64,000 nt of DNA from Longimicrobiales bacterium (lineage in GTDB: Bacteria; Gemmatimonadota; Gemmatimonadetes; Longimicrobiales; Gaopeijiaceae), in NCBI GenBank assembly GCA_965219445.1, contig CBDCNQ010000003.1, forward strand, positions 128,001 through 192,000. The letters are read 5' to 3'. The notes below the pieces were generated by a model. The model was not told where the DNA came from, did no database searches, and worked only from the letters and a program-made list of their open reading frames with translations. This document shows positions 20,095 through 53,680 of the stretch, one piece after another; position 1 is the stretch's first letter, and each line of letters opens with the position of its first letter. The position numbers and the translations under genes were made by a program.

Positions 20095-20096
20095 CT

Positions 20097-20133
20097 GAAA
20101 ACGACCCCGGAGCTTCTGCCTCGGGGTCGTTTT
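20097..20133 (+). terminator. Intrinsic terminator after rnpB-tRNA
   Basis: AAAACGACCCCG...CGGGGTCGTTTTT. Confidence 0.85.
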
Positions 20134-21164: not shown

Positions 21165-21232
21165 GGTATTCCTCCGAAGTAGCACCTTAATGCTACCGGG
21201 TTTGAGGTTGGGTCAATAGGTGTGTAAATGTT

Positions 21233-22477: not shown

Positions 22478-22573
22478 GAGGCATCGTTCCTTTCCCCCGG
22501 GCGCTCACCCGGGATTCGCTGGTTAACTTCTTACTACCTAGCGGAAAGGTACGTCGCCTCTTTTTTTACACAC

Positions 22574-24167: not shown

Positions 24168-24179
24168 TGATCCTAGCTC

Positions 24180-25099: not shown

Positions 25100-25123
25100 C
25101 CCGCCGCGCTTTGCGGCCAAATC

Positions 25124-25202
25124 CCCCTATTTCCAGCGCCCACGAGCGCCCGACTCATATCTGATAAGCGTGAGGTCGGTAGTTCGAGTCTACCCAGGCC
25201 CA
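25124..25202 (+). repeat. att-like site 1: partial arm plus 42-nt 3' portion of tRNA-Ile(GAT)
   Basis: CTGATAAGCGTGAGGTCGGTAGTTCGAGTCTACCCAGGCCCA at 25161-25202, identical to 45107-45148; no tRNA 5' half upstream. Confidence 0.88.
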
Positions 25203-25514
25203 CTTTTTAAGTATTAGCCCCGCCGGCCCTTATGGCCTTCGGGTCTTTGCTGTATCAGAAAAGGTATGAGGGCAATATCACCGGCTGTAGCACGAGGCGG
25301 GTTTTCAGGGCGGCTGTCGTGAGTCCCTGCGTCGTTTTCAGGCGATGTGCCGCGCAAAATAAAGCGCGAGGCGCAGCAGAACGGCGTGAGCCCTTCAGTC
25401 TGGGCTTGCGTGGCTCGTGGATGGCTTATTAGAGTCACGCTGTTGGGATTAGTAGAATCACGCTGTTTGGATTATGTGTCAGGCTTTGTCACTCTTCACG
25501 ACAACGGGGTGATT

Positions 25515-28036: not shown

Positions 28037-28078
28037 TATGACTTGTAGGTCGAGCAAGCGCATTGTGAAGGAGAAGCC

Positions 28079-29584: not shown

Positions 29585-30499
29585 ATGATGTGGGCTTGGG
29601 TCGTGGCGTTGGCGATTCTGCTGATCCCTCAGGGAGCCGATGGCCAGGACGGGCTCACCTTTTTGAAGGGCCAGACAATCTCACCGGTCTTCGTCGGGTG
29701 GCAGGACAATCCGGATGGCTCCTACAACCTCTGGTTCGGATACATGAACCGGAACTGGGAGGAAATGCCCGAGATCCCGGTGGGACCCGACAACCACTTC
29801 TCGCCCGGGCCGGCCGATCGGGGGCAGCCCACCTATTTCCTTCCGCGCTTCAACCGTTTCGTCTTCAAGGTGCAGGTGCCGCCCGACTTCGGTGATCAGG
29901 AACTCGTGTGGACGCTCCGGGCCCAGGGAGAGGCGTATGGGTCGCTCAACCGGGAATACCATCTGGATCACCGGATGTACCAGGCCCAACGGGGAGTCTA
30001 CGGAGGAGGCGGCTTTCGCGACGGGGCGGATGAGAACACCGCCCCGGATCTCGAGGTGGACGGAGAAGAGGTACGAAGGGTCAAGGTAGGCGAGCCACTG
30101 ACGTTGGTGGCGCACGTCAGCGATGACGGATCTCTGGCCCGCACCGACAATACGTTGCCCGTCACCGAGGATGGAGAGCTGGACCTGGAGAGGGCGTTGG
30201 CACTGAAGCCCACCAGCCACACGATGGGCACCCATTTTGCCCTGACCCTCTCCTGGTGGGTCTACCGGGGCAACGGCAACGCGGTGGCGTTCGATCCCGA
30301 CCAGGTGAAGACGTGGTGGGATACGAGGCCCTTCCAGTCCCGGTGGTCACTGTATTGGGTCCCGCCGGAGGAGCCGGAGGACGGGACTTGGGTGACTCGG
30401 GTCACCTTCCACGAGCCGGGTACCTACGTGCTCCGTAGCCGGGCGGATGACGGAGGCTTGTTTACGGACCACGAATTGACGGTCCACGTGACCCGGTGA
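29585..30499 (+). CDS. Secreted hypothetical protein with Ig/PKD-like domain, paralog 2
   Basis: Same motifs as 27041..28036 (FGYMNRNWE, GQPTYFLPR, TFHEPGTYVLR). Confidence 0.78.
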   Translation: MMWAWVVALAILLIPQGADGQDGLTFLKGQTISPVFVGWQDNPDGSYNLWFGYMNRNWEEMPEIPVGPDNHFSPGPADRGQPTYFLPRFNRFVFKVQVPPDFGDQELVWTLRAQGEAYGSLNREYHLDHRMYQAQRGVYGGGGFRDGADENTAPDLEVDGEEVRRVKVGEPLTLVAHVSDDGSLARTDNTLPVTEDGELDLERALALKPTSHTMGTHFALTLSWWVYRGNGNAVAFDPDQVKTWWDTRPFQSRWSLYWVPPEEPEDGTWVTRVTFHEPGTYVLRSRADDGGLFTDHELTVHVTR

Positions 30500-32831
30500 C
30501 AACGTCGCCACCTGAGACGCCACCCGAGACACCTGCTCACCGCGAGCCAGCCCTCCCGCTCATCCCATCACGCTTGAATCCCAAACGCCAGCACTTTCAT
30601 ATTAATTCCCCATCCGCTGGCGAAGCTCCTCGAACCAGTTCTGGACGATCTGGACCTGCCTCAGCCTCGACGGGTCGCTCTTGACCATCACGAAGCGCCC
30701 ATCCGGCCCGACATCCCAGTTGATGAACTGAGAGAAGTCGTAGCCACTGGCATCGAAAAGTTCTCGGGGAGGACCGGACGAGAAGGTGGGAGAGGTGCTA
30801 ACCTCGACTGCCAAAATGCGGGTGCCACTCCGATAGAATATCTCGCGCCCGTCCTTGGACCACTTCCCCTCCACACCGCCGCCAATGGAGACGGAGTGGC
30901 GGGGTCCGGGACCCGGAAACGGCCTGACGTAAACCTCCCTGGCGCCCGACACGTTGGAGTAGTACGCGACCCAGCGTCCGTCGGGTGAGAAGTTGGGAGC
31001 GGACTCGGAAGCCGGCGTAGCGAGAAACGGTGCTGAAGATCCGTCGACGAGGTTGATGACAGCCAGATCCGAGCCGTTTTCCGGGTGGATCTCGTTCACC
31101 ATGATGTGATCATCAATCGACCAGGAGGGCTGGTATTGCGGCAGAGGCCGGGCGGACGCTAACTGCGGCCCGCCGCCCTCGCGCCAACGTATCCAGTGCA
31201 GATCGCCACCGAAGGAAAACCCCAACCGCTCACCATCAGGTGCCCAGGCTAGACTCGGATGATGTCCGTCGGTCGTGAGGGGTTCCGCGCTTCCCCTCTG
31301 CAGGTCCACCATCCAGACATCAGAGGGACGGGGATCCACGATCACAGCCACCCGGTTTCCGTCAGGAGAGACGCGCGGCCAACGATAGCCTCGCGCCTCG
31401 ACCGGGATCCGCTCCTCTGAACCATCGCGAGCGACGAGCCAGAGAGACCGCTCGAAGCCTCCGGCGACATAAGCCAGCGTTCCCGTTTCCGATACGGCGA
31501 AGGCGGCTGCACTGCCGCCAGGACCACGAAACACACCTTCGAGGACCGGGACCTCCGCACCGTTTACCTCCAAGCGGTCGATGTCGAACGGCACGGCTCG
31601 TATCCGCTCTTCGCCCGCATGGAAGAGGAGATGACCAGTCGGGACATAACGCGCCTGTGTCCCATTGAACAAGAACCGCACCTCTCCGGTCCCAAGATCG
31701 AGAACACCCGTTCCCCCGATGACGCTCACCAGTGCATGCTCGCCATCCGGAAGGTGGTGCGGCCACCGTGGCTGCCCCCCCCGATCGCAGTAGAATCAGC
31801 ACCGGCTCGACCTGTTTGGTCGACCTGGGTGAGCCCAAGCGGCACGGGGTCTCCGCCTGCCATCGGTACGCGATACAGGCTGGGCCCTGCCGCGAATAGG
31901 ATCGTGTTGTCGGCTCCCCAGCTCGCTCCACGGGTCTCTCCAGATGGCAAGGGAGTGATGGTGATCGGAGCCCCACCGGATACCGAGACCCTCTGTAGCT
32001 GGCCGCTCGCGAAGAACCCCACCCACTCGGCATCCGGCGAGAAGAACGGTTGTCGCGCATCGTCCGTGCCATCCAACTCTCGCGGGGACAAGTCATCGAG
32101 CTCGCGTAAGAACAGGCTCCTGACTCCGGCCCGCTCTCCTACGTACACCAGCCGCGTACCGTCGCCGGAAATGGCCAGTGGGTGGCCAAGCCGTCCCCCG
32201 AACACTCGTTGGTCCTCCGGGAGTGAAATCTGCGTTCGAGTCACCGGCTGCCGGGGCTGCGGTCGCATCCAGCCCCACAGGACGAGCCCGATAGCGACCA
32301 CGGCCACCGCGGGCCACGCGACCATGCCCAGCCCCTGGGCACGGAACGTGGACATGGCGGCAGGTGCCGGCTCGGAGGTCATGAAGGAGGGATCTCCCAG
32401 GGCCTGCGAAAAAAGAACGGCGCTCGAAAATCGATCGGCTGGCAGCTTCTCCAGCGCCTTAGCAATCGCCGCATCTACGTTGGCCGGGACGGTCTCCCGC
32501 TGAGCGGCCGCCGACACGCGCTCACCGGCGATGATTTTGCCCAGGATCGCCTGCGGAGTGCTCCCGGTGAACGGCGGCTCTCCGACCAGCGTCTCATACA
32601 AGACGCAGCCGAGGGCGTATATGTCTGCCGCAGGACCCAGATGTTGACCGCCAGCTGCCTGTTCCGGGCTCATGTAGTGGGGCGTCCCGAGGCTCAGCCC
32701 GGTCTCGGTCAGACGACCCCCTCCCGCTCCGCCGACAGCGAGCGCGATCCCGAAGTCCGTGATCACCGGCTGACCATCGTGGATCAGAACTGGAGTTGGC
32801 CCCGCACGGTGGACGGTTTTGGACTAGAGAT

Positions 32832-33680
32832 TCACGCGGCGGGGGCGTGTTCCTTTTCGTAGTTAAGAGGAGACAATTGGCCGAGGGCAGAGTGCCGTCG
32901 GTGGGGATTGTACCAGGCTTCGATGAAGTCGAACACGGCCATCCTGGCCTCGGCCTGATTGCGGAAGCTCTTTCGTTCGATGAGTTCGGTCTCGAGCGTG
33001 GCGAAGAAGCTCTCGCACATCGCGTTATCGTACGCGTCGCCGACCGAGCCCATCGAGGGTCGGACGCTGGCCTCTTTGCAGCGTAGGCCGAAGGCGATCG
33101 AGGTGTACTGGGTACCCTGATCGCTATGATGGATGACACCGTTCGGTCGTCGTTGCTGCAGCGCCATGTTCAGCGCGTCGAGCACGAGATCGGTCTTGAG
33201 ATGCGTCTTCATCGACCATCCGACCACATGGCGGCTCCACGCATCGACGACGACTGACAGGTACAAGAAGCCGCTCCAGGTCGGCACGTAGGTGATGTCG
33301 GCAACCCAGAGCTGGTCCGGGCCGTGCACACTGAAGTCGCGCGCGACGAGATCGGGGGCAGGTCGAGCATCTCTGTTTCGCTTCGTCGTGCGCCACTTCC
33401 TTCGCCGCGTAGCGCCTTGTAGTCCTGCCAGCCTCATCAGACGACGCACCCGCTTGTGGTTGACCTGCCAGCCGTCGTCCCTGAGCTCGGCGTACATCCG
33501 TGGCTGGCCATACGTCTCACGGCTGAACGTGTGGATCTCACGCATCCGACCTAGCAGTCGCTCGTTCTCGACCGCGCGATGCGATGGAGGACGCTTTCTC
33601 CATGCGTAGTACCCGCTGGGCGAGACGCTCAGGACTTCGCACATCATCTGCACGCTGAACTCGGCCTGGTTGGCCCTCAC
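32832..33680 (-). CDS. IS3 OrfB (rve integrase core)
   Basis: WVADITY, HHSDQGTQY, DNAMCESFF, YN..RRHSALG. Confidence 0.93.
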   Translation of the reverse strand: MRANQAEFSVQMMCEVLSVSPSGYYAWRKRPPSHRAVENERLLGRMREIHTFSRETYGQPRMYAELRDDGWQVNHKRVRRLMRLAGLQGATRRRKWRTTKRNRDARPAPDLVARDFSVHGPDQLWVADITYVPTWSGFLYLSVVVDAWSRHVVGWSMKTHLKTDLVLDALNMALQQRRPNGVIHHSDQGTQYTSIAFGLRCKEASVRPSMGSVGDAYDNAMCESFFATLETELIERKSFRNQAEARMAVFDFIEAWYNPHRRHSALGQLSPLNYEKEHAPAA

Positions 33681-33991
33681 GAACTCGAACGCTTCGGGGG
33701 CACCGAGTCGGACTCCTGAGCGAACCAGGCCGCGGCTTTTTTTAGGATCTCCCGCTCGACACGAAGCCGCTTGTTCTCACGCCGAAGCTCGCGGAGCTCC
33801 TCGCGCTCTGACGACGTCAGGCCGTCGCTTCTGACTCCCGTGTCGAGGTCCGTCTGCTTCACCCAATTGTGGATCGTCTGCGCTGTGGGCTCAAACTCCC
33901 GACTCAGCTCCTCAGGCGTGCGACCTGCTTTGACCAGCTCCACCATCTGCTGGCGGAACTCCAACGAATACGGCGGTCTCGTTCTTGGCAT
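33677..33991 (-). CDS. IS3 OrfA (HTH); A7G slippery site for -1 frameshift at ~33743-33736
   Basis: YSLEFR...ELRELRRENKRLRVEREILKKAAAWFA; AAAAAAAG on the minus strand. Confidence 0.92.
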   Translation of the reverse strand: MPRTRPPYSLEFRQQMVELVKAGRTPEELSREFEPTAQTIHNWVKQTDLDTGVRSDGLTSSEREELRELRRENKRLRVEREILKKAAAWFAQESDSVPPKRSSS

Positions 33992-34324
33992 CGTGGACTC
34001 CTCTCTCTAAAGAGAATAGGTGTCCACCGTCAGGGGCTAACTCCAAACGTTACCGGGCTTGATGTCGCGATGAATTACGCCTTGGCGGTGTGAATAGTCG
34101 AGGGCCTCCGCCATGTTCGTGGCGATCCGCACTGCTACGTCCACTGGGAGTTGATGAGAGCTAGGATCAAAGGCATCATAGGGGCATGGCGACCGCTACC
34201 GGTACCGATCAGCAGCGAAGCAGCCCGAAGACGAAGAGGCGTTCTCCTCCGGGAGCGGGTGCGCGTTCATCATTATTCGCGCAAGCAAGCAACCCAACCC
34301 GTCCTACCCAAGAGGAGGATGCCG

Positions 34325-35379
34325 ATGGAGAGGTATATCGGACTCGACGCACACGCGTCGAGCTGCACGCTGGGGATTGTAGGCCCCAGCGGCAAGCGCT
34401 TGGGCTCGCAGGTGGTGGAGACGAACGCGCGGGCGCTGATCGAGGTGCTGCGAGGGATTCCGAGGAACCGGCACTTATGCCTGGAAGAAGGGACGCTGTC
34501 GGGGTGGCTGTACGAGGTGCTGAAGCCGCACGTGGAGGAGCTGACGGTGGCGGGGGTCGGCAAGAGCCGGGGCCCGAAGACCGACAAGCTGGACGCGTTT
34601 GCCCTGGCGGAGAAGCTGCGGATCGGATCACTGGAGACGACGGTCTACAAGAACCGGGGCCAGTTCAGGCGGCTGGGGGAACGGGCGAAGAGCTACGACT
34701 TCTTGGTCGGCGACACGGTGCGGGTGAAGAACCGGCTCAAGAGCGTGCTGCGCTCGAGAGGAGTGGCCTACGGCGCGGGGCGCTCGGTCTACTTAAAGCG
34801 CGACCGGGAGGAGTGGTTGGCCAAGCTGCCGGAAGCGAGCAGGACGACGGCCGGGTTGCTGTACGAGGAGCACGACGCACTCGTGGCATTGAGGGCGAAG
34901 GCCGAGAAGGCGTTGCTGGCGGAAGCACGCAAGCATCGAGAGTGGCATGTGCTGAAGACGTGCCCGGGTCTGGGTCCGATCCGGACGGCGGAGCTCCTGC
35001 CGGTGGTGGTGACGCCGTACCGGTTCCAGAGCCGGAGCAGGTTCTGGGCGTACTGCGGACTGGGCGTCGTGATGCGGAGCTCGTCGGACTGGGTGCGGGG
35101 TCCGGGTGGGCGGTGGGTAAGGGAACCGGTACAGCAGACGCGGGGGCTGAATCGGAACTTCAACCACACGCTGAAGCGTGTGTTCAAGGGCGCAGCGACG
35201 ACGGTGATCGGTCGGGCCGAGGACGAGCCCTTGTACCGCCACTACGAGCGACTCCTGGAGGGGGGCACGAAGCCGAATCTGGCGAAGCTGACGATCGCGC
35301 GTCAGCTCGCCTCGATCGTGCTAGCGGTGTGGCGCACGGGCGAAGCGTACGACCCAAGAGACTGGAAGCGACGGAGTAA
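34325..35379 (+). CDS. IS110 recombinase copy B (CCC instead of CCCC at 35353 shifts the last ~7 codons)
   Basis: Near-identical to 22963..24018 with several substitutions (E/K, R/T, N/D); the copy-A stop corresponds to TAA 35377-79. Confidence 0.88.
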
Positions 35380-35439
35380 ACCGGCCTGGGATCGGCGAGC
35401 GTGGGGTCGAAAGCGGTCACAACATGGGGTCCGACGAAA

Positions 35440-35660
35440 CGGAAGCGAACCGGTTACAGGGGACAGCATCCATACACACCGTGGGCCGGGGCAGAGAGCC
35501 CAAGCCCCCACTCAAAGGCTATGCACCCCTGGAGAGCCGAACGAAGCGATGGGCCACAGAGTCCCAGATAGAAGGATGGTTCCCGCTCCAGAGCGGAGAA
35601 CGCGACGGCTGTGAACGTCTTCCGGACTGCGATGCGGACCCTGCGAGCGCACCCCTCCCC
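35440..35660 (+). ncRNA. Predicted bridge/seek RNA in the IS110 3' non-coding region (mirror copy at ~22680-22900 on the minus strand); boundaries approximate
   Basis: TACACACC (35473-80) and TCAAAGG (35512-18) match the target halves and face each other in a stem-bounded internal loop; ATAGAAGG (35568-75) matches the donor junction. Confidence 0.72.
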
Positions 35661-35864
35661 ACCCTGAGTCGTCGACCGGGCAATCCAAACCATGCGGACG
35701 CCGACGGTCAAAAAATGAGCCGACGGCGCGTGGGGAAGGTGCGTCTTGACCGCCAGCCCCATAGAAGGGTGTGTAAAAAAAGAGGCGACGTACCTTTCCG
35801 CTAGGTAGTAAGAAGTTAACCAGCGAATCCCGGGTGAGCGCCCGGGGGAAAGGAACGATGCCTC

Positions 35865-37109
35865 GTGAGGAAGAATATGGTGGGACCCGAGAGTGAGTCC
35901 AGCACGCCGACGTGGGAGTGCTTGGAAGCGCTGGTTCGTGAGAAGGCCCAGGAGATGGTCCAGCGGATTCTGGAGGAGGAAGTGACGGAGTTGCTCGGCC
36001 GGGAGAAGTCGGAGCGGAAGACGGTCGTAGACCCGGCGCCAGGCTACCGCAACGGCTACGGCAAGGCTCGGCGGCTGGCGATGAGCTCGGGCACGATCAT
36101 GCTCCGACGGCCCCGGGTTCGAGGCATTGAGGAGCGGTTCGAGAGTCGGGTGTTGCCGTTGTTCGCACGACGGACGAAGGAGGTGGGTGCTCTGCTTCCG
36201 GAGCTGTATCTGCACGGGCTGGCGGAGGGAGACTTCGAGCTGGCGATGCGGGGCCTGCTGGGCGAGGGGGCCCCGTTGTCGAAGTCTTCGATTTGGCGGC
36301 TGCGGGCGGGATGGACAAGGAAATTCGAGGAATGGTCGAAGCGCTCGCTGGCCGACCGTGAGGTCGTCTACGTCTGGGCGGACGGGATCTACGTGAAGGC
36401 GGGGCTCGAGCGGGACAAGGCAGCGCTGCTGGTGGTTCTCGGTGCGATGCGAGATGGTACGAAGGAGGTGTTGGCCCTGAGATCGGGCTACCGAGAGTCG
36501 GTCGAGTCCTGGTCCGAGGTGTTGCGGGATCTGAAGGCACGCGGCATCGAGGCGCCCCGGCTTTTGATGGCGGACGGCAACGCGGCGATCTGGGGCGCAG
36601 TACGGCAGGTATGGCCTGAGGCGGGCGAGCAACGGTGCTGGAACCACAAGATGAGGAACGTGCTGGACCGGCTGCCTCAGCGGGAGCAGAGCGAGGCGAA
36701 GGACCTTCTCAGGACCGTGGTCTACGCACCGAGGCGGTCCGAGGCGCTGAAGGCCCGTGAGGCGTTCGCCAGGCGCTACAGACCGTGGTATCCGAAGGCG
36801 GTGGATGTACTCGAGGACGACTGGGAGCGGATGGTGGCGTTCTACGACTTCCCCGAGGACCACTGGAAGCATCTACGCACGACGAACGTGGTCGAGAGCC
36901 CCTTTGCCGCAGTACGGCTCAGGACAACGGCGGCGAAGCGCTTCAAGCGGGTCGAGAGCGCTACGGCGCTGATCTGGAAGCTGCTCTTGGTGGCGGAGAA
37001 GCGCTTCAGAAGGCTCGACGCTCCTCACCTCCTCAAGGACGTATTTGAAGGAAGAAAGTTCGAAGACGGAAAGCCCGTCTCAACCCAACAGCGGAAAAAC
37101 GCCGCCTGA
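35865..37109 (+). CDS. IS256-family DDE transposase copy B
   Basis: Translation identical to 21233..22477. Confidence 0.95.
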   Translation: MRKNMVGPESESSTPTWECLEALVREKAQEMVQRILEEEVTELLGREKSERKTVVDPAPGYRNGYGKARRLAMSSGTIMLRRPRVRGIEERFESRVLPLFARRTKEVGALLPELYLHGLAEGDFELAMRGLLGEGAPLSKSSIWRLRAGWTRKFEEWSKRSLADREVVYVWADGIYVKAGLERDKAALLVVLGAMRDGTKEVLALRSGYRESVESWSEVLRDLKARGIEAPRLLMADGNAAIWGAVRQVWPEAGEQRCWNHKMRNVLDRLPQREQSEAKDLLRTVVYAPRRSEALKAREAFARRYRPWYPKAVDVLEDDWERMVAFYDFPEDHWKHLRTTNVVESPFAAVRLRTTAAKRFKRVESATALIWKLLLVAEKRFRRLDAPHLLKDVFEGRKFEDGKPVSTQQRKNAA

Positions 37110-37138
37110 AACATTTACACACCTATTGACCCAACCTC

Positions 37139-38256
37139 GCCGTGCCCTGTCGAGGTTCCTGGGGTACGGACCGTTCTTCTATACCGACTAGCGGCTCACC
37201 GTTGGTGCGATCGAGGATGTACACCCAGCCTGTTTTGCCCGCCTGGGCCAATCCTTTACGTGGCACGCCGTCGTATTCCAGATCAAACAAGACCACAGGG
37301 TTAGGCGCATCATAATCCCAGATATCATGATGCACCTGCTGAAAGTGCCAGCGGTACTCACCGGTGTAGGCATCCAGTGCCACGATGGACGCTGTGAACA
37401 GGTTGTCCCCGGCACGCACCGCTCCGTTGTAGTCGGGCCCGGGGTTGCCGGTCGAAAAGTAGATCATGCCCAATTCAGGATCCACTGCAGGCGTGTGCCA
37501 CACAGTGCCCCCGCCGGTTCGCCAGGCATCGTTGTCAGCAGGCCAGGTATGATGACCGAATTCGCCCGGGCCTGGCACGGTATGGAAAGTCCACAGCAAA
37601 CTGCCGTCGGCCGCACTGTAGGCCTTCACCCGCCCTCTTGCTGCAAATTCTGCACCCGCGAAGCCGGTAATCACCATGCCGTTGAAATACAAGGGAGCGC
37701 TGGTGATGGTATACCCTTCTTCCCAGGCTTCGGCCTGGATGGACCAGACCTCTTCACCGGTCTCCATATCCAGCGCCTTAAGCACGCCATCCAGCTGTCC
37801 GACAAAGATTTTGTCTTCGCCAAATCCCACACCGCGACTGGTCCATCCACAACAGACCGTCGAAATTTCATCATCAAGATTTGCCCGGTAGCTCCACAAA
37901 ATTTCACCGGTTTCAATGCCCAGGGCGAAGACATCGTCTGCACCGGTTACGACATACATGACCCCTTCGTGGATGATGGGCTGCGCCTCACCTGAATACT
38001 TCGCGCCGACCCCAGACTCGTCGAGATGAGTACGCCAGACCGGACCAAGTTGATTGACATTGTCCGTGTTGATCTCCGTCAATGCTGAGAAGTTTCGGTT
38101 GAAGAGGTCCCCGCCGTTGGTCAGCCAGTCGGCCGTAGGCAGTTCCGACAGCGTCTCTTCATCCGGTCTGACCTGTGAAGATTCAGCGGCATTTGCTGTC
38201 AGCGAGGAACACAGGACAAGTAGTCCTGCCAAAAGGTTAGACGTATGTCTATGCAT
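37139..38256 (-). pseudogene. N-terminal half of the quinohemoprotein alcohol dehydrogenase split by IS256
   Basis: Signal peptide; VCCGWTSRG; STGNPGPD; VHHDIWDYD; breaks at VPQEPRQGTA|IS end. Confidence 0.9.
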
Positions 38257-38982: not shown

Positions 38983-39210
38983 CGTTCTACCTCCCTCCTC
39001 AAGACGAGGCGTTCGGCCAAATCCTGCTTGGCATCTTTTCTACAAGGCGTCCGTCCGTTCGCTGACGGGAGCGTCCGCAACGATTACGACTCCGTAGGTC
39101 GCGGCGTCACTCGGGGCGCGCTGTTCTCGGGGAACGTAAAGGTGGTCCCTTTTGGGTGCCAGGGGACACGAGCCAAAATACTTGTACCAGTGGGCCTGGG
39201 TAGACTTGAA

Positions 39211-40410
39211 CTGTTCGGCTTGAGCGTTCACGGATTCGAGAACGTTGGTCGTCTTCAGCGAACGGCCAACCAGCGGGAACACGCCGAGTCGATGCAGGGT
39301 CAACGTCTCCTCGAACCCTTCGTCCAGGCTTGCAACCGCCGACTGGTTGAGCTCGTCCAGCTCAGCCCGCATCGCTTTCAGGTCCCGCTTCGCCTCCTCG
39401 TAGGTGGGCCGCTCGTAGGCTCGCTGCAGACGTCCACACCAGGCCTTCTGCTCGGTGCGTGGCAGGTACGAGACCACATTCTCTCGCTTGTGCCATTGGC
39501 AGCGCTGGATAAGCACCTGGCCCCGGAACACCGTCGTCACTGCCGACTTCAGCCCCTTGGCGCCGTCGATCACGACCAGCGCTCCGGCCGACAGATCGAG
39601 TCCCCGATCCTTCAGGGAGCGCAGAAAGCTCGTGATCACCCGGGCGTTCTCCGTTTCCGTCTGCACGAATCCCGCAAACACCTTGTCTCCCCCCATCGTC
39701 ACGGCTAACGCGACGACGATTTCGTCATTGGCAAACGTCTTGCCATCCAGGAAGAGCGCCACGACGTCGAGCTCCGTAAGCTCACGTTCCTGAAACGCCT
39801 TCAGCTGCCTGGCGGTCGCCTTCTTGAACTCCCGCGACACCGTCGACTTAGACAGCCCGATCGCCCCCGGCACTGCCTCCACCGCGGCCTCATAGTCACG
39901 ACACGAGATCCCAAGCAGGACCTTGCGGAACAACCCCTCGTCCACCTCGCCCGCCGCCCAGTGCAAGCGCTCGTACGACTCCAGACGCGCCTCTCCCTCC
40001 AGACCTCGCACCCGAGGGACCCGGACCGGATGACGCTGCCCGCCCAGGCGTACCGAGCCCGGGTTGCTCCCATGCCGGTAGATCACTTCTCCTTCTCCCT
40101 TGCGGGCGTGCCTCGGACCCGCCAACCGCTCGACCTCTTCGTCCAGCACCCGCCCCACCTCCGCCAGCCCAAGCGGTATCAATTCCTGGATCAATTCCAC
40201 CCGCATCTCGGTCCTCAGCGCCTCGATCGCTTCCCAGTCCAGCTCACTCGGCGCACCCATCCTTCGGTCCTTCTTGCCTCGACGTACAAGCTGTGGCTCT
40301 CTCTCCATTGGTGGCCTCCTTCCTCTCATGGTTCGGTGTTGTGTTCCTCACACCCACCTTACCCGAGGTCGGAGGTCACTTCAAATTCCAACTAAACTTA
40401 GGACACCCTC
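39211..40410 (-). mobile_element. Second, unrelated IS256-family element, 3'-truncated
   Basis: End GAGGGTGTCCTAAGTTTAGTTGG at 40410; transposase motifs LFLDGK, VIDGAKGL, QRCQWHK, TTNVLES, then loss of similarity near 39211. Confidence 0.85.
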
Positions 40411-40836: not shown

Positions 40837-41865
40837 CGCAGCCGCCCCGGTGTGTCTTGGGGCGGAAGTCACGAGAGTCCTGGACTCCGCTGACATCGTC
40901 GAGCTCCTTTGTGCGGTGTGATATACGTGTCTTCCTTCAGAAAACCTCATCTTCGTCCAGCGCGGGCTATCCCCACGCTATGTCCTCAGGCCGGCGATTA
41001 GGCCGCCTCCTCTAGGAACTGGGTCACCACCTGCACCAGCTCCTGCGGTTTGTCCATGTGCACGTAGTGGCCGGACTTGTCGATTACCTCCAGCTTGGCG
41101 TTGGGCAGGTTTTCTACGATCTCCTGCCCCAGCTTGCTGCTGATGAAACGATCGTATTTGCCCCACACCACCAGCACGGGTGTTTGAAGCTCTTGTGCGC
41201 GCGGCTCAAAGTATTCCTGACCCATGCGGAAGTTTTGGAAGTACGAAAGAAACGCCTCTTGGGTGCTCTTACTCACACCATCGGCCAAGAATTCTCGTCG
41301 CACCTCAGCCGGGATGGAGTGCCCCCTGTAAAATCCTTTGAAGTACGAAATTTCGGCTGTGATGCGCGGAAACCAGCGCACCAGGGCCTTGCCGATGATC
41401 GAGCCTTTTTTGGCAAAGCTCTTGAGCTCCCAGGAGGAGTATTGTGGCCGCGGAAACGGAATGCCGTCCATCACCGCCAGCTTGGAGACACGGCTCGGGT
41501 GCTCGAGGCCGACCAGTAGCGAAGGGAGAAGGGCAATGTCTGTGGCCACCAGGTTCGCCTGACGGATCTGAAGCGAGTCCATGAAGTCTACAATCACCTC
41601 CGCAAAGCGGCGTGACGTGTAGTCCTCGGGCGACGTCAACGGATCGCTCCCGCCAAAACCAGGCCAATCGATCGCCAGCACGTGGTACTTTTCGGCCAGG
41701 AGTGGCGCCACAGCGTACCAAGCCTGCAGATTCTCGGGCACGCCATGCAGCAACAACACCGTCGGGTTCGCAGGGTCGCCCAACTCGGCAAACCGGATGT
41801 TGAGATCTTCCTTTTCCAACCGCACGGTCTTGGTAGCCAGCAGACGGTTCGGTTTTTCCATTGTT

Positions 41866-43765
41866 GTGGGCCCGGCATGGGCGATGACTTGGAGGTGAAA
41901 GTCCTCCCGGAACCTGGTCGCAGGGACCGAAGGGAAGCGCAAGGCGTTCGTCGTGAGGCGTACGCTGAACGAAGCGTGAAACGAACCCGTGAGTCGACGA
42001 ACAGGAACCGGATACGAGGCGCTGCGGACCGGGGCGAGCGGACCACTGACCGCGAAGCTCCTGCGACCAAGGGGAAGCGGCGTAGATCCGGCGATTGTGC
42101 GGGGAAGGTCATCGTTCTTACCCGGGGAGGTCTCGCCTGACGCCTGAAAGGGTGACGCCGGCACTGCGCTATCGTGCGTGCCGGCGGAGCGAGAAGTCAG
42201 CAGAGGCCATAGTAGGCCGACGAAGTGCATGATGCGCTTGGACCCAGCTTTGTCGGACGAAGGGCCGAACGGAGAGGAGAGCGTGACGACCGTGGACCTC
42301 GGCAAGGCCATGCGCCAGGAGTCCAGGCAACTGGGGCTCCCACTGGAGGATAGGGGTGAAGCCCCGAAGGTAGAGGGGAGTGGCGAAGCCGGAACGGTGG
42401 CCCATGGAGACGAGCGCTCAGGAAGCGAGCATCTCCTGATGCAGGAGGTGGTCGGGCGTGCCAACCTCGTAGGAGCGTTGAAACGCGTGCGGCAGAATAA
42501 GGGCAGTCCGGGCATCGACGGGATGAACGTGGAGGAGCTGCCAGAGTACTTGCGCAGGCACTGGGGGGAGATCCGACAGCGGTTGCTGGCGGGGACCTAC
42601 CAACCGAAGCCGGTACGAAGGCAGGAGATACCGAAGAGTGGGGGAGGGGTCCGGGAGTTGGGGATTCCGACCGTGCTGGACCGGTTCATCCAACAAGCCA
42701 TCCTGCAGGTGATGCAACCGAGGTTCGACCCGACGTTCAGTCGGCACAGCCACGGCTTCCGGCCTGGGCGCCGAGCACACGATGCGGTGCGCGAAGCGCA
42801 GCACTACATCCAGGAGGGGAGACGATGGGTGGTGGATGTGGACCTGGAGAAGTTTTTCGACCGGGTGAACCACGACGTGCTGATGGGGCGGCTGGCAAAG
42901 CGGATCGAGGATAAGGCGATGCTGCGGATCCTCCGTCGCTACCTACAGGCCGGAGTCATGGCGAACGGGGTGGTGATGGAGCGGCACATGGGGACGCCTC
43001 AGGGCGGACCGTTGTCGCCGTTGCTGGCGAACGTGCTCCTGGACGAAGTGGACCAGGAGTTGGAGCTACGCGGACACGCGTTTGTCCGGTACGCCGATGA
43101 CTGCAATGTATACGTGCGGTCGAGGCGGGCAGGACAACGTGTGATGCAGGCGCTGAGGCACCTGTACGGGAAACTTCGGCTTCAGGTCAACGAGGAAAAG
43201 AGCGCGGTGGCGCGAGTGTGGGATCGACAGTTCCTGGGCTACAGCTTCTGGGTAGCGGCAGGGAAGGTCGTGAAGCGCCGGGTCAGCAAGAAGGCCCTGA
43301 CGAAGTTCAAAGAGCGAGTCCGGCAGATTACAAGCCGGAGCGGCGGGCGGAGCCTGCAACAGGTGGCGGAAGAGCTACGGAGCTACGTGCTGGGGTGGAA
43401 GGCATACTTCGGCTTAGCGGACACACCGGGGGGTTTCCGAGACCTGGACCAATGGATCCACCGCCGGCTGCGTACATTGCAATTACGCCAGTGGAAACGA
43501 GGAAGGACAGCGTACCGGGAGTTGAGGGCTCGCGGTGTGAGCGAGAACCTCGCCTGGCGAGCTGCTCGGTTCGCGCGAAGCTGGTGGCACGTGGCTGCGC
43601 ACCACGCCCTGCACACGGCCTTGCCGGGGGCGTACTTCGACGAGCTGGGTGTGCCCCGGCTCACGCCGTACTGACCTCAACTCACCGAACCGCCAGGTGC
43701 GGACCCGCATGCCTGGTGGTGTGGGAGGGGAAGGACCGGGAACGCCGGTCCTCCCCTATCCCGAT
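41866..43765 (+). mobile_element. Group II intron, class C (IIC)
   Basis: 5' GTGGGCCCGGCATGG; domain V GAACCGCCAGGTGCGGACCCGCATGCCTGGTGGTGTG with CGC triad; domain VI ending CCCTATCCCGAT; removal restores the host frame. Confidence 0.92.
42283..43674 (+). CDS. ltrA: Group II intron reverse transcriptase/maturase, no endonuclease domain
   Basis: NKGSPGIDG; RELGIPTVLDR; DLEKFFDRVNHD; GTPQGGPLSPLL; RYADD; FLGY; maturase GWKAYF; start could be 42283, 42310 or 42439. Confidence 0.93.
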   Translation: MTTVDLGKAMRQESRQLGLPLEDRGEAPKVEGSGEAGTVAHGDERSGSEHLLMQEVVGRANLVGALKRVRQNKGSPGIDGMNVEELPEYLRRHWGEIRQRLLAGTYQPKPVRRQEIPKSGGGVRELGIPTVLDRFIQQAILQVMQPRFDPTFSRHSHGFRPGRRAHDAVREAQHYIQEGRRWVVDVDLEKFFDRVNHDVLMGRLAKRIEDKAMLRILRRYLQAGVMANGVVMERHMGTPQGGPLSPLLANVLLDEVDQELELRGHAFVRYADDCNVYVRSRRAGQRVMQALRHLYGKLRLQVNEEKSAVARVWDRQFLGYSFWVAAGKVVKRRVSKKALTKFKERVRQITSRSGGRSLQQVAEELRSYVLGWKAYFGLADTPGGFRDLDQWIHRRLRTLQLRQWKRGRTAYRELRARGVSENLAWRAARFARSWWHVAAHHALHTALPGAYFDELGVPRLTPY

Positions 43766-43876
43766 CCGCGGCGATCGGTGTTCAATGGTGTTTTTTCCGA
43801 TCGAGCTAAGAGTCCGGCGTCACTCGTGTTCATGTTTCCTCTCCTTGGTTTGGGATACTGATAACTCGAGTTTCAT

Positions 43877-44407
43877 CTAGGCCGCGAAGATTCTTACCGC
43901 ACGCCGATAAGAGACAGCTTGCGAGAGAAATCCAAACAGTACAGGCAAGGCGTAAACCTGAGCTAGCAGCGCCGTGGGTGCCGCACCGATGCCACCGGTA
44001 CTCAATGACGCCTCAGCCAGGATAATGGCCGAATTGATGGTTCCGATAATCAATCCAATTGTCACAGCCCTTGCGGGAATCCCATGTAGAAAAGCGGTTG
44101 CGACAAGATTCTCCGTCGTCTCGGGTATATGCTCTTTTTTGGCATCCCCCCAGGCCCGCCGGATAGCCGTGAGTTGCGAGATCGCAATGACTACGAAAGG
44201 GGTCACATATGCCAAAAGCAGAGGCACAATCTGAATCGTGTCGGATCCAAAGAGCGCATCGAATTGATTGATCCACGTCAGTGCGCTGCCAATGATCAGA
44301 GCGAGTATCGCTGAGCGGCGTAGCACGCCGCCCGTCAATTGGGCTGACTCAGGGAGACCCCAGCGTTGCCGGTTTTCCGAATGCCCTGTGCTGGTTCCTG
44401 TTTTCAT
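43877..44407 (-). CDS. Small membrane protein with two NrtS-like repeats
   Basis: RSAILALIIGSALTWINQ...YVTPFVV and a second RAVTIGLIIGTINSAI...YALPVL repeat. Confidence 0.6.
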   Translation of the reverse strand: MKTGTSTGHSENRQRWGLPESAQLTGGVLRRSAILALIIGSALTWINQFDALFGSDTIQIVPLLLAYVTPFVVIAISQLTAIRRAWGDAKKEHIPETTENLVATAFLHGIPARAVTIGLIIGTINSAIILAEASLSTGGIGAAPTALLAQVYALPVLFGFLSQAVSYRRAVRIFAA

Positions 44408-44428
44408 CTTTCGATATGCTCCAGTAAG

Positions 44429-44440
44429 GTGTATATACAC
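44429..44440. promoter_or_regulatory. Palindromic operator GTGTATATACAC (putative MarR box)
   Basis: Perfect 12-bp palindrome; an identical copy lies at 44926-44937. Confidence 0.75.
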
Positions 44441-44459
44441 TTAATCGTTCAAAAAAACT

Positions 44460-44921
44460 TCACCCGTTTTGCACCACGCCAATCGTTGTCTCTAGATCAT
44501 CCAGAAAGGCTGACCAACGCTTCTGACCAAGACCGTCGACTAGCCGGGACTGCGCCTCTCGCCAATAGGGAAGGGCATCTTCAAGCACTGTCTTCCCCTC
44601 GTCCGTTAGGCTGACGATGCGCACCCGTTGATCCTCGTCCTGTTCAATGCGGACCAGTCGCTTCTCAACGAGTGGCCTGAGATTTCGCGTTAACGTCGTA
44701 CGGTCCATAACAAGGGCGTCTGCCAACTGCGTCAGTGGTGTATCTCCCAGTCTCGCCAGTGCCGAGATCACGGTGAATTGGGTTACCTGCAGGCCAACCG
44801 GCCGCAAGCCGGCGTTATAGACTTGCGTCACCGATCGCGTTGCTTTGCGCAAGTTTGCGATTGTGCAATTCGCTCGATCCAGGGCATTGCGACTCTGATT
44901 TGCAGGTTTCTTGGTGGTCAT
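44460..44921 (-). CDS. MarR-family transcriptional regulator
   Basis: C...LRKATRSVTQ.Y; QFTVI; MDRTTLTRNL; DQR.R.VSLTDEG. Confidence 0.92.
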   Translation of the reverse strand: MTTKKPANQSRNALDRANCTIANLRKATRSVTQVYNAGLRPVGLQVTQFTVISALARLGDTPLTQLADALVMDRTTLTRNLRPLVEKRLVRIEQDEDQRVRIVSLTDEGKTVLEDALPYWREAQSRLVDGLGQKRWSAFLDDLETTIGVVQNG

Positions 44922-44925
44922 TTAC

Positions 44926-44957
44926 GTGTATATACACTATTTGGCCTTGCCTGTCAA
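44926..44957 (-). promoter_or_regulatory. marR sigma70 promoter with overlapping operator; likely leaderless mRNA
   Basis: TTGACA-17 nt-TATATA-7 nt-ATG; the -10 lies inside GTGTATATACAC. Confidence 0.72.
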
Positions 44958-44991
44958 GACAAGGGTTTTGATCGGGTCGGTGCAGAGAAAC

Positions 44992-45148
44992 CTGTAACAC
45001 AACCTGTATCATCGCCCACCAGCGCTGGCTGGCGCCCACCAGCGCAGAATCCGGGAAAACCCCTAATTCCAGCGCCCACGAGCGCTCACGAGCGCTCGAC
45101 TCATATCTGATAAGCGTGAGGTCGGTAGTTCGAGTCTACCCAGGCCCA
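44992..45148 (+). repeat. att-like site 2: 115-bp arm plus 42-nt tRNA-Ile(GAT) 3' portion
   Basis: Arm matches 47678-47792 at 112/115 by manual comparison; tRNA part identical to 25161-25202. Confidence 0.9.
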
Positions 45149-45374
45149 TTGATGGAAATTGAAGCCCCCCAACGCCTTCGGGTCTTGCGGACAGAAACGC
45201 CGCACCTTTCGTTCGGGATGCGAGGCGCTTGTCGTCGACGCGTGGTCCACCGGAGGCCTCGCGGTTGCCCCCTTGTCGTTCCCGATCTACGATTCGCGAA
45301 TTCATCGCGTTGTGACGCCCATGAGGGTTACAGCGCCGTTCTATGACCTCGGGGAATCAGGAGCAACGAGCATC

Positions 45375-47546
45375 ATGAAAGTCGACCCTCGACCCTTCCG
45401 CATGCGGACTCTCCTGCTTTGCGTCGGCCTCGCCTCGGCGGCCTCGATGGCGACGGCGGCTCCGGCGTCCGCTCAGGTCCAGACGGGGACCGAGAACGGC
45501 GAGTGGCGCTATGTCGGCGGCAACGCCGGGCACACCCGCTACTCACCTCTTGAGCAGATCAACGCCGCCAACTTCGCGGATCTCGAGGTGGCGTGGATTT
45601 GGCGGGGGGACAACTTCGGCCCCAACGTCGACTACTTTTTCCGGTCCACGCCGCTCTACGTCGATGGAGTGGTCTACACGATTGCCACGCCGCGCCGGCA
45701 GGTGGTCGCGATGGACCCCGCCACGGGCGAGACGCTCTGGGTGTTCCGCGAGCCCGAGACGGTCAGGCACCTGCGGTCCCCCAGGCAGGCCTACGGCAAG
45801 GGCGTCGCTTATGCCGAGGTGGACGGTCGCGGCGTGATCTTCGTCATTACCCCCGCGTTCTTCCTCTGGGCTCTCGACGCCAAAACAGGACTGCCCCTGG
45901 AGGATTGGGGCACCCCCATACCGCTGGACGATTTCCCGCAGACCGGGGGCGTCGATCTGATCCCTGGTCTCGTCGGGGACTGGGGCCGCTGGCAGGACTA
46001 TCTCGCCCAGGGCAACATCTACGACCCGGACCACGGGATTCCGAGAGAACTCGGCATGGTCAGCAGCTCGGCGCCGCCGATCGTGGTCAACGGTGTGGTA
46101 GTCGTAGGCACCGGCCACGAGGCCAGCTATAACCAGACCCGGATCGAGAATGTCCCGGGTGATATCCAGGGCTACGATGCCAGAACAGGAGAGTTTCTCT
46201 GGAAGTTCCACATCATCCCCCGGCCCGGCGAGTTCGGGCACGAGACGTGGGAGAACGACGCCTGGCAGTGGTCCGGGGACATGTCGCAATGGGCTCTCGC
46301 GTCCGCCGACCCGGAGCTGGGACTCGTCTACATGGTGACGAACGCCTCGACCGTGCAGACGTACACGGGCCAGCGCCCCGGAGACAACCTCTTCGGGGGC
46401 AGCGTCATCGCGTTGGACGTGAGGACCGGCGAGCGGCGATGGCACTTCCAGATTCACCACAGCGACCAGTGGAACTACGACCTGCCGACCCCGCCCATGC
46501 TGATGGACCTGACGGTGGACGGGGAGGTAATCCCGGCGTTGGTACAGAACACCAAGCAAGGCCTCGTCTTCGCGTTCAACCGGGAGACCGGTGAGCCCAT
46601 TTGGCCGATTGAGGAGCGCCCGGTCATCCAGACCGAGGTCCCCGGCAATTACACCGCGGTCACGCAGCCCTATCCGACCCTGCCGGAACCGTTGGACGAC
46701 ATCGTGTTGAACGGACTCACTGAGGAGTTCGTCATCGACTACACGCCGGATCTGGAGGCTCAGGCGCAGATCATACTGAGTCAGTTCCGGATCGGGGGCC
46801 TCTACGTGCCGCCGCTTCCCTACAATCATGACAACGGCTTCCGCAACAATGTCGGCTGCCAAGGGGCCGGAAACGTCATCCCGCACCCCCCGGTCGCGGA
46901 TCCCACTACGGGCACGATATACGCAAACCACCACCGGAACTGCAGCGCCCCCGCGTTCATGCAGCCCACGGATGGGGAGGCCGCGGATATCCCGGAGTAT
47001 GCTTCGCCTGGTGCTGGCTACTCCACCCCCACCTTTACTCCGACGACGGGCACGACCGTGGCGGCGTGGTTGCCAGGCGGCGGGCCCGTGCAGCGCCGCG
47101 AGCCGCTTCCGAGGATCGAGGGCCTGCGGCTCTGGAAGCCGATGGACAACCAGCTCACCGCCATGGATATGAACAGAGGCCGGCGGACCTGGTCGGTGCC
47201 GGTCGGCGAGACCCCCGAGGAGATCCGGGACCACCCTCTTCTAGCGGGAGTGGACGTTCCCAATACGGGAGGCACCGGCTTTTCGATCCAGATGGTGACG
47301 GGGAGCGTCTTGGTCCAGACCAGGGCGTACAGCTCGGGGCCTGGGCAGTCGGTTCCCGACGAGCCGTTCGAGCTCCACGCGCGCGACAAGGGGACCGGCG
47401 AGATCCTGGCGAGCGTCGAGCTCCCGGCCCCCGGCCAGTACGGGATGATGACCTACATGCACGAGGGCAAACAGTACATCGTGGTGCAGATCGGTAACGT
47501 CCACGTAGACTTTCCGGGCTCGCTGGTGGCGCTGACTCTGCCCTGA
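45375..47546 (+). CDS. PQQ-dependent dehydrogenase, soluble glucose/quinate-DH-like subfamily
   Basis: RYSPLEQIN; SSAPPIV; PGDIQGYD; RPGDNLF; WNYD; TYMHEGKQYIVV. Confidence 0.88.
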   Translation: MKVDPRPFRMRTLLLCVGLASAASMATAAPASAQVQTGTENGEWRYVGGNAGHTRYSPLEQINAANFADLEVAWIWRGDNFGPNVDYFFRSTPLYVDGVVYTIATPRRQVVAMDPATGETLWVFREPETVRHLRSPRQAYGKGVAYAEVDGRGVIFVITPAFFLWALDAKTGLPLEDWGTPIPLDDFPQTGGVDLIPGLVGDWGRWQDYLAQGNIYDPDHGIPRELGMVSSSAPPIVVNGVVVVGTGHEASYNQTRIENVPGDIQGYDARTGEFLWKFHIIPRPGEFGHETWENDAWQWSGDMSQWALASADPELGLVYMVTNASTVQTYTGQRPGDNLFGGSVIALDVRTGERRWHFQIHHSDQWNYDLPTPPMLMDLTVDGEVIPALVQNTKQGLVFAFNRETGEPIWPIEERPVIQTEVPGNYTAVTQPYPTLPEPLDDIVLNGLTEEFVIDYTPDLEAQAQIILSQFRIGGLYVPPLPYNHDNGFRNNVGCQGAGNVIPHPPVADPTTGTIYANHHRNCSAPAFMQPTDGEAADIPEYASPGAGYSTPTFTPTTGTTVAAWLPGGGPVQRREPLPRIEGLRLWKPMDNQLTAMDMNRGRRTWSVPVGETPEEIRDHPLLAGVDVPNTGGTGFSIQMVTGSVLVQTRAYSSGPGQSVPDEPFELHARDKGTGEILASVELPAPGQYGMMTYMHEGKQYIVVQIGNVHVDFPGSLVALTLP

Positions 47547-47677
47547 TTCGTGCCCAGCATCCCCCGGGCTCCGTCCAGTTCCACGAGGCGACCCATCTCA
47601 CGGCCGCCGACCGCGACCTGATGCAGCAGATGCGTCTAAGGCGGGTGCGAGGGCAACCGCTCCGTGCTGGGCCGAAG

Positions 47678-47792
47678 CTGTAACACAACCTGTATCATCG
47701 CCCACCAGCGCTGGCCAGCGCCCACCAGCGCAGAATCCGGGAAAACCCCTAATTCCAGCGCCCACGAGCGCCCACGAGCGCTCGACTCATAT
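47678..47792 (+). repeat. att-like site 3: 115-bp arm without tRNA fragment
   Basis: Direct repeat of 44992-45106; similarity stops exactly where the tRNA fragment would begin. Confidence 0.9.
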
Positions 47793-49010
47793 GGGCAGGA
47801 GCGCGTCGGGGACAAGCGCCCAACTGGATCTGAAGTCGAACGCCGCGTTATTCGTGAGGTTCGTCTGGTTCAAGCCGTCGGCGTCCATCACGTAGATCTC
47901 ATAGTTCCCGTCGCGGTTGCTCGAGAAAGCGATCTTCGAGCTGTCCGGCGACCAGGCGGGAAATGCGTCCAACGCTGCGTTGTTAGTGAGGTTCACTGGG
48001 TTCGAGCCGTCGGCATCCATCACGTAGATCTCGTTGTTCCCGTCGCGGAAGCTAACGAAAACGATCTTCGAGCCGTCCGGCGACCATGAAGGCGCGGAGT
48101 CGAGCGACGCGTTGTTCGTGAGGTTCATCTGGTTCGAGCCGTCGGCGTTCATTACGTAGATCTCGTCGTTCCCGTCACGGTCGCTCGAGAAAGCGATCTT
48201 CGAGCCGTCCGGCGACCATGAAGGCAAAACCTCGAAACCCGTGGGATCCGTGTTGTTCGTGAGCCTCACCGGGTTCGAGCCGTCGGCGTCCATCACGTAG
48301 ATTGCATAGTTCACGCCGCGGTTGCTGTCAAAAGCGATCTTCGAGCCGTCCGGCGACCACACGGGATTATTGTCATCGACCCCAAGATTGTTCGTGAGCC
48401 TCATCAGGTTCGAGCCGTTGGCGTTCATTACGTAGATCTCGCCGTTCCCGTCGCGGTCGCTCGAGAAAGCGATCTCCGAGCCGTCCGGCGACCATGAAGG
48501 CCCGGAGTCGAACGCCTCGTTGTTAGTGAGCCTCGCCGGGTTCAAGCCGTCGGCGTCCATCACGTAGATCTCATCGTTCCCGTCGCGGTCGCTCGAGAAA
48601 GCGATCTCGGAAACAAGGACAAGCGGGCTCACAGTGATCGACAGCGCCTTCGTCGCGCTCTGACCGTCCCCGCTCACAACCCCCACGGTGAAGTTCTGGG
48701 TTTCGAGCACCGTCGGGGTTCCGCTGACCTGACCGCTCGCCGCGTTCAAGCTCAGACCCGTCGGTAGCGACCCGACCGTGACAGACCACGTGTAACTACC
48801 GTCCCCGCCGGTGGCAGCGAGCGTCTGACTGTAGGCAACAGTCTGTGCTGCGTTCGATAGCACCGTCGTTGTGACAGCCAGCGTCGCGAAACTTGGACCC
48901 ATAGTGTCATCGTTGCCTCCACAGCCCAGCGGGAGAAGAAGCAAGCTCGCGACGAAAAGAACTCTGCGGCCCGAGAGGGCGGCATTTAGGCGGATGATGG
49001 GATCGGACAT
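47787..49010 (-). CDS. Lipoprotein with putative Ig domain and TolB-like PD40 repeats
   Basis: Lipobox [14 protein letters not shown].....SGTPT Ig motif; six ~44-aa repeats ([22 protein letters not shown]); stop lies inside the arm repeat. Confidence 0.87.
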
Positions 49011-49152
49011 GGGCGCACTCCAGGATCAGACCGCCGTCAACATCCGAGAGTGGGCCGGTGGGCGCAAGCGGAAGCACGTCACACGGCCAGAATCGCCGCT
49101 ACAGCAACACCAACGGCAGCCCCAGCACGAAGAGCGCCGGACGTAATATCGG

Positions 49153-53220: not shown

Positions 53221-53242
53221 ACGCCTGATAAGCGTGAGGTCG
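53221..53242 (+). repeat. att-like site 4: tRNA-Ile anticodon stem-loop fragment
   Basis: ACGCCTGATAAGCGTGAGGTCG; shares 18 nt with sites 1 and 2 but has a different upstream flank. Confidence 0.7.
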
Positions 53243-53680
53243 CCCTCTCTGCCAACGCGTGACGTTCACTCGCCCCGAGTCGCTGACGTACATGCACCAC
53301 GCACCTCCGTCGGCGCTCGGGGCTCAGAAGTTTCCCTTGGTCGCTTCCTCCAGGATCAGCTTGTCCACCGTCAGGTTCGCCACCGCTCGCTTCAGCCGTG
53401 CGTTCTCCTTCTCCAGCTCCTTGAAGCGTCGAGCTTGATCCACCTTCATCCCCCCGAACTCCTGGCGCCACCGGTAGTACGTCTGCTCGCTGATCCCCAG
53501 CTCCCGGCTCACCATCCCCACCGTTTTGCCGTTCGCCAGACCCACCTCCGCCTCTCTCAATGCCGTGATGATCTGCTCCGGCGTGTGTCGTCTCCTACTC
53601 ATTCTGACCTCCTCCCTGATGGTTGCGACCAAAGCCGCATCCTAACATCAACTTCGGTCTCGGTTCAGGGGGTCACGTCA
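53243..53680 (-). mobile_element. Truncated IS3-family element (left end, orfA 53602-53324, first codons of orfB)
   Basis: TGACGTGACCCCCTGAACC end at 53680; MSRRRHTPEQII...TYYRWR..FGGM...LEKENARLKR...KGNF. Confidence 0.88.

Follow-up and report, generated by a model that had tools for sequence, protein, structure and literature searches.

A probable worn and displaced unit from a tRNA-Ile row of integrase-less islands in a Longimicrobiales genome

The repeat-bounded unit and its ends

The window analysed here is a whole stretch of 64,000 nucleotides of a Longimicrobiales genome (C3:128001-192000 of its assembly, G000; G005, G006 and similar labels denote genomes of relatives, L numbers denote loci and X numbers public runs). 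At 45107-47792 it contains a unit composed of the 3' half of tRNA-Ile(GAT), the remnant of a left arm, a gene for a PQQ-dependent dehydrogenase and a remnant of another gene, preceded by one copy of a direct repeat and closed by a second (Table 1).

Table 1. Features of the window, numbered from its first nucleotide
Feature	Position	Strand	Remarks
Second junction	25124..25292	+	partial type-B arm, full tRNA-Ile 3' half, intact three-box type-B P' arm
tRNA-Ile 3' half, bases 21-42	39191..39212	-	abuts truncated IS256-family transposase
MarR, membrane protein, alpha/beta hydrolase module	40914..44959	-	cargo left of arm copy 1; split by group II intron
Type-B right (P) arm, copy 1	44992..45106	+	boxes 44992-44999 and 45004-45011, 10-bp units, left core half-site
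tRNA-Ile(GAT) 3' half	45107..45148	+	begins with 7-nt anticodon loop, the likely overlap region
Decayed left (P') arm remnant	45149..45200	+	three type-B boxes absent
PQQ-dependent dehydrogenase gene	45375..47546	+	723 aa from ATG at 45375, the presumed start codon; PF01011
Remnant of other gene	47560..47630	+	matches C2:703400-703693 (85% DNA, 56% protein); joined to PQQ flank via 11-base common stretch
Type-B right (P) arm, copy 2	47678..47792	+	stops at left edge of core; zero tRNA bases after it
TolB-like beta-propeller gene	47787..49010	-	PD40; stop codon within arm copy 2
tRNA-Ile 3' half, bases 1-18	53225..53242	+	cut by end of multicopy IS
IS3-family element, 5' half	53255..53676	-	3' half abuts tRNA-Ile row at C4:760551-761375

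Sequence comparison placed the two copies of the repeat 2686 bases apart with 112 of 115 positions identical, as the initial annotation had described (115 bp, three mismatches), and a BLAST search of the 115-base repeat against the genome gave an E value of 4e-51. The CTGTA(A/T)CA boxes and the 10-bp units recognised in that annotation are present as well, the box pair (12 bp from start to start) being found twice in the window and in none of 100 shuffles. The repeat is likely to represent two copies of a recombination arm. Following what is generally held for lambda-type integrases, we take the boxes to be arm-type sites, the 10-bp units to be Xis sites and the anticodon loop to be the overlap. 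Among the 22 full type-B arms, 15 are exactly 116 bases long and five are one 10-bp unit shorter, and conservation falls within about 4 bases left of box 1. The folding of the arm beats that of shuffled sequences (z -3.0 to -3.9), yet it gives several short hairpins. Candidate IHF sites, which fit the consensus with 1-3 mismatches at varying places, were not counted as evidence. Anticodon-centred sites are common among islands (2083 of 3919 in Table 1 of the Islander paper, PMC4383910).

All 42 bases of the tRNA fragment behind arm copy 1 are identical to C4:766780-766821, part of the only tRNA-Ile(GAT) of the assembly, which is intact (C4:766780-766853) and lies on another contig than the window. 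The initial annotation had listed this fragment correctly, although three further pieces in the window had escaped it (one at 25161-25202 and the two partial ones in Table 1). It was also right that the unit contains one dehydrogenase gene (full-length match to PF01011, E 3e-140) and that the window lacks an integrase, since none of the 66 PF00589 matches of the genome falls within it. The gene remnant downstream of the dehydrogenase, which we take to resemble IS91, had no passing match in Pfam.

The repeats had been proposed to be att sites bounding the unit. This holds for the arm, which is present on both sides, but not for the core and the right half-site, which follow copy 1 only: copy 2 directly meets the 3' end of the TolB-like gene, and not a single core base of the overlap or right half-site was found after 47792. 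At the left end of the unit none of the three P' boxes was detected, unlike in the six aligned P' arms, including one at 25203. Compared with a CIME, the unit is indeed devoid of integrase and transfer genes; however, its attL has the core and has lost the P' boxes, and a complete attR (P arm, overlap and right half-site) is missing. Given the missing core at the right end and the missing arm boxes at the left, the unit is predicted not to excise by site-specific recombination, and since both ends lack parts that are kept in better-preserved neighbours, it is likely a worn, displaced piece of a row and not a working cassette.

It had originally been suggested that 45107-47792 is a minimal cassette which circularises and is mobilised in trans. 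Joining of its ends would indeed give the attP order (arm, core, tRNA half), and matched units with a single gene and no integrase do occur, such as one of 2849 bp with a PQQ gene in G007. The same circle could also arise through RecA, by crossing over between the two 115-bp copies. We nevertheless consider this model improbable and its ready-to-excise form unsupported. Apart from the incomplete ends, the assembly is without an intact cognate integrase, no unit recurs with both boundaries, and two other species have arm-less copies of the PQQ gene (G006, 97% identical; G010, 94%). Moreover, in X1, a near-identical run that may be the source sample, the read depth of the PQQ gene (5-6) equals that of its flanks (5.4-6.2).

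The two arms of the window are 97.4% identical to each other, compared with a median of 82.8% over 231 arm pairs, and have in common three alleles that are found in none of 20 other arms. For arms of the same genome the median identity (87.9%, 17 pairs) is hardly above that for arms of different genomes (84.9%, 214 pairs), which suggests that most arms arrived separately, while the window pair is likely a local duplicate. The arm tree is poorly resolved, with 14 of 19 inner branches open. The three private alleles suggest that a single arm was duplicated and that deletions probably trimmed the product afterwards. The stretch common to the window and the arm-less copy of G006 extends over 45230-47569. 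A second near-identical PQQ copy, which would prove a duplicated unit, no longer remains in G000.

The right junction and the surrounding island

Two other studies yielded contigs in which the TolB-like gene ends next to 44 different letters left of 47791, which places the junction within 0-2 bases of the predicted cut. This closeness to the overlap edge, together with the arm-less allele, is what would be expected if 47792/47793 were a true attR, created when a type-B integrase inserted a composite circle ending in this arm off target, at a secondary site where the TolB-like gene ends and overlap homology is slight or absent. The same applies to the finding that four of the 13 truncated B arms break inside the overlap (at 0, 1, 3 and 4 bases). 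However, such breaks are not enriched (four of 18 type-A and type-B truncations versus 3.7 expected, in a count that leaves aside six non-arm rows and two type-A arms cut within the arm), what lies to the right of the junction is only a weak match to the right half-site, and no left junction of foreign flank and core was found upstream. In addition, the split IS3 element described below ties the region to the tRNA row, so that a secondary site is unneeded. We therefore regard this origin of the junction as unlikely. None of the 18 truncations falls at bases 8-14 (P 0.03), a post hoc hint only, and three truncations carry the same inserted sequence.

An assembly artefact at arm copy 2 or its junction would agree with the lack of a contig across 47792/47793 among the matches listed. 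The contigs of eight of the 24 listed public runs, examined for the circle junction and the empty site, all break at the repeat, and one joint, from 47697 to 45022, stems from other arm variants. An artefact is nonetheless very improbable: the arm copies differ at three positions and are preceded by unlike sequences, X3 record 1, a contig from a different study, covers 47560-47699 with 0 differences, and other B arms likewise end inside the overlap. Relatives that could indicate the natural end of the TolB-like protein match it at only 40-67%. The TolB-like gene has fused to its start (48966-49100) a repeat of 90-190 bp that covers the starts of Ser/Thr kinase genes and recurs dozens of times in genomes of the genus; this repeat may seed gene shuffling.

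Several other parts of the window bear traces of rearrangement. Inverted 3-kb composite copies of IS256 and IS110 (21204-24179 and 34158-37138) flank an inverted segment (24180-34157), and the inversion splits another PQQ dehydrogenase gene (24183-24784 and 37139-38256), which is whole in G005, G008 and G011; in relatives, this 577-aa gene is located in tRNA-Ile islands. The tRNA-Ile piece at 39191 is likely the other half of the site at 53225. The latter is separated from the IS3 half by the end of an IS (53243-53254) found at 28 exact places in the genome, and the outer flanks of the split IS3 halves are adjacent in G005 and G006. The MarR module is 91-94% identical to modules within the tRNA-Ile islands of the same two genomes. 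The split IS3 and the common genes connect the island of the window with the tRNA-Ile row that G000 has on C4. With both inversions undone, the four window junctions would be co-directed away from the IS3 half, as expected for a continuation of the C4 row.

Within the MarR module, a group II intron reverse transcriptase gene (42178-43674) lies between the hydrolase and membrane-protein genes, which directly adjoin each other in G005 and G006. To the left, the island is bounded by tRNA-Arg(CCG) followed by a Fic/MazE-type pair (20021-21137).

Rows of units at tRNA-Ile and their integrase

In G000 we identified 13 places that start with the anticodon loop, including the tRNA itself, besides arm-only pieces. 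Their left flanks sort into type B (the repeat of the window), type A (paired CTGTCGAT boxes) and rarer types. The repeat is not confined to the window. Of 12 genus genomes, 10 have arm B, for the most part in rows of one orientation that follow tRNA-Ile, and 8 have arm A, three weak rows of the latter consisting of P' boxes alone. Searches of 49 genomes beyond the genus matched little besides the tRNA part, and the arm-core junction pattern was found in 16 stretches among 185,579 species genomes, all of them Longimicrobiales or Gemmatimonadota by title.

Co-oriented units behind the intact tRNA-Ile number six in G005, five in G006 and two in G000, the latter being a 3112-bp unit of type A with a kinase gene (C4:763709-766821) and a 2299-bp unit of type B with a DUF3891 gene (C4:761410-763709), both integrase-less with matched ends. 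The 27 delimited units span 0.7-15.5 kb (median 3.9 kb); one contains an intact integrase, three contain C-terminal stubs and 23 none. The sole intact integrase is found in G005, in the unit next to the tRNA; the P' boxes of this unit belong to a third type, and the integrase to an arm type other than B. A type-B P' arm was recognisable after only six of 24 full B junctions. In four of the 27 units, cargo lies between matched P' and P arms without an intact integrase, which is the arrangement of a CIME: units 1 and 2 of the G000 C4 row, the one-gene PQQ unit of G007 and unit 4 of G006. Two of three P' boxes are present in the last of these, and G000 unit 1 retains a 31-residue integrase stub.

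The cargo varies between species. Among the 27 units, two pairs have a gene in common and none has both boundaries in common; among 30 arms, cargo-to-arm junctions common to genomes occurred in two cases, one with a TrkA-domain gene (three genomes) and one with another stretch (two genomes).

Of the integrase cognate to arm B, G000 retains a stub only, at C5:889864, where a type-B P' arm precedes the C-terminal 109 residues (of 408) of a tyrosine integrase. Its full-length relative P0002 (408 aa, PF00589) is 98% identical over this stub, and in the metagenome locus L095 an intact 409-aa integrase directly abuts the core, the tRNA half and a P' arm with three CTGTA(A/T)CA-type boxes, the sequence upstream of this integrase being 156 bp only. 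On these grounds the interpretation of the repeat as an att-type arm at the anticodon-loop site of tRNA-Ile, with an existing cognate tyrosine integrase, is sustained. A whole type-B element with both ends was not seen, and the pairing of arm B with the L095-type integrase therefore rests on the common box motif and the matched units, from which arm B appears to be the P arm of this integrase.

At E<=1e-90, a full-length cognate integrase was found in none of the 12 genus genomes. Relatives at 47-57% identity occur in nine of 300 family genomes, eight of the 11 loci lying beside other tRNAs. P0002 had no match among solved structures, and viral contigs yielded neither an arm-core junction nor a relative of the integrase; the sole viral match to the box pair (L241) is located within a phage tail gene and attributable to chance. 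The P4-like integrases at C4:1188559 and C5:563495 were ruled out as cognate, as they do not abut these sites. A 90-aa ORF of G005, which presumably resembles Xis, had no passing match in Pfam.

PF00589 matches are more numerous in G000 (66) than in G005 (16) and G006 (21), several of those in G000 being identical multicopy genes. About 20 places in G000 match P0001, the tRNA-Ile integrase of G005, at roughly 30-47%. In another genus, an intact integrase of the same family as that of arm B lies beside a tRNA with a CAT anticodon (L134, G171:C6:7074-11216), about 600 bp from a TrkA-domain gene that is 94-96% identical to the arm-B-linked one in three other genomes.

Probable origin of the unit and related systems

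Taken together, the unit of the window is probably a decayed, displaced member of a tRNA-Ile stack of integrase-less islands, which tyrosine integrases would have built up by successive insertions into the anticodon loop. In such a stack, small elements composed of a P' arm, an integrase, an xis-like gene, cargo and a P arm would have entered tRNA-Ile, each arrival pushing the 42-base tRNA half down the row. Deletions would then have removed the integrase, leaving the stubs observed, and often the adjacent P' boxes, with the 116-base P arm mostly kept. The unit ending in the window arm may subsequently have been duplicated locally, the second copy being trimmed to the PQQ gene by short-homology deletions, and the core behind arm copy 2 was presumably deleted, possibly at the integrase cut position. 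Finally, IS-linked rearrangements would have separated this part of the row from the tRNA, inverting some of its pieces.

This is a kind of structure already known, in which elements with tyrosine integrases accrete in tandem and lose their integrase, in the manner of CIMEs; it is not an integron. The integron-like gene accumulation proposed initially is borne out as far as rows with variable cargo exist in relatives, but the term is too strong, since the sites look like double-arm lambda-type junctions of several integrase families, as in known tandem-accretion islands. Integron-type cassettes with reproducible boundaries on both sides were not observed (0 of 27 units), nor was a resident IntI with attI: the G006 and G000 rows contain no PF00589 gene.

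Some findings speak against this origin. The exact 116-base spacing would fit selection for function better than passive decay. An incoming helper element could use intact P arms to excise as far as a distal arm and take along the units between as passengers (cis-mobilisation). Because four better-kept integrase-less units exist elsewhere, a helper-driven shuttle may yet operate. It is conceivable, though doubtful, that marine Longimicrobiales maintain a population-wide gene shuttle at tRNA-Ile, in which a rare helper integrase, absent from most cells, excises gene-sized integrase-less units and inserts them anew, their 116-bp arms serving as reusable cargo tags. We likewise propose only tentatively that units move singly or joined into composites, with any intact P arm as the end, and with the same reserve that the row is an analogue of the integron built on lambda-type sites common to at least four integrase families. 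The constant arm length, the matched units, the gap at bases 8-14 and the cut-site junction fit arm selection with helper-driven movement, but also selection while the parent elements were autonomous.

Among known systems, CIMEs of streptococcal ICE/IME composites are elements devoid of integration genes that stack at one site, where elements arriving afterwards insert next to them and may take them along (PMC5704250). The tRNA-Ile rows resemble them in this accretion at one site; in contrast, no conjugation genes were seen in the tRNA-Ile units, which usually hold 1-3 genes in rows of up to six units, and the window unit has neither end whole. The ssrA islands of Dehalococcoides are also tandem, parted by repeats of the target gene, and carry as cargo the favourite redox enzyme family of the lineage; according to the parts of PMC3146451 consulted, they involve a serine recombinase and tmRNA, and 15 of 31 are without an integration module, whereas the tRNA-Ile rows involve tyrosine integrases, the anticodon loop and several arm types per site, and 26 of their 27 units are without an intact integrase. 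In the tycheposon islands of Prochlorococcus, an intact element lies beside the tRNA with older units outward and integrase fragments and partial tRNAs scattered, as outlined in 10.1101/2020.12.28.424599. All these features, and the rarity of elements relative to islands, are in common with the present rows, although the host is unrelated, the 156 bp upstream of the intact type-B integrase show no replication or packaging module, and the tRNA-Ile rows keep full 116-bp arms at most junctions. The additive flexible islands of Alteromonas likewise use a tRNA as target for added cassettes that vary among strains, but these cassettes are large clusters, unlike the tRNA-Ile units (PMC4119200, sections seen). 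Tandem arrays and their deletion are reviewed, to judge from the part seen, in PMC5812530.

With Islander islands, the window has in common the 3' tDNA fragment starting at the anticodon loop, i.e. an anticodon-centred site (PMC4383910). The intact tRNA upstream in the same orientation within 200 kb is present for the G005 and G006 rows, but not for the window, whose tRNA is on C4, and the window island contains no integrase. In the portions of PMC4383910 examined, Islander requires an integrase per island and lists only four tandems of three or more; rows of the tRNA-Ile type would be filtered out by this demand, and integrase-dependent island finders miss them. A literature search of the main texts of mostly open-access papers found no description of the tRNA-Ile rows of this lineage.

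The unit of the window is itself probably no more than a relic. The rows show a single tRNA at which an uncultured marine lineage gathers accessory enzymes (PQQ dehydrogenases, kinases, hydrolases), and they supply a concrete integrase with cognate arms for testing cis- or trans-mobilisation of integrase-less units; a helper shuttle, if true, would be an integron-like route of gene exchange on ordinary phage-type sites.

Some further elements were noted around tRNA-Ile. Three tRNA-Ile halves (L122:1559, L140:6021 and L142:11381) are interrupted at base 25-26, where one and the same short, GC-rich hairpin sequence follows, perhaps a small element aimed at the T-loop. Integrase genes or stubs located upstream of tRNA-Ile (in G000 just above C4:766853, L138:2185-3078 and L046:4723-5781) suggest a second class of elements on its 5' side. 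Finally, a further arm type was detected at C4:1198300-1198420 of G000 and about 13 other places, with many weaker look-alikes devoid of tRNA-Ile bases, and possibly represents the ends of another integrase family.
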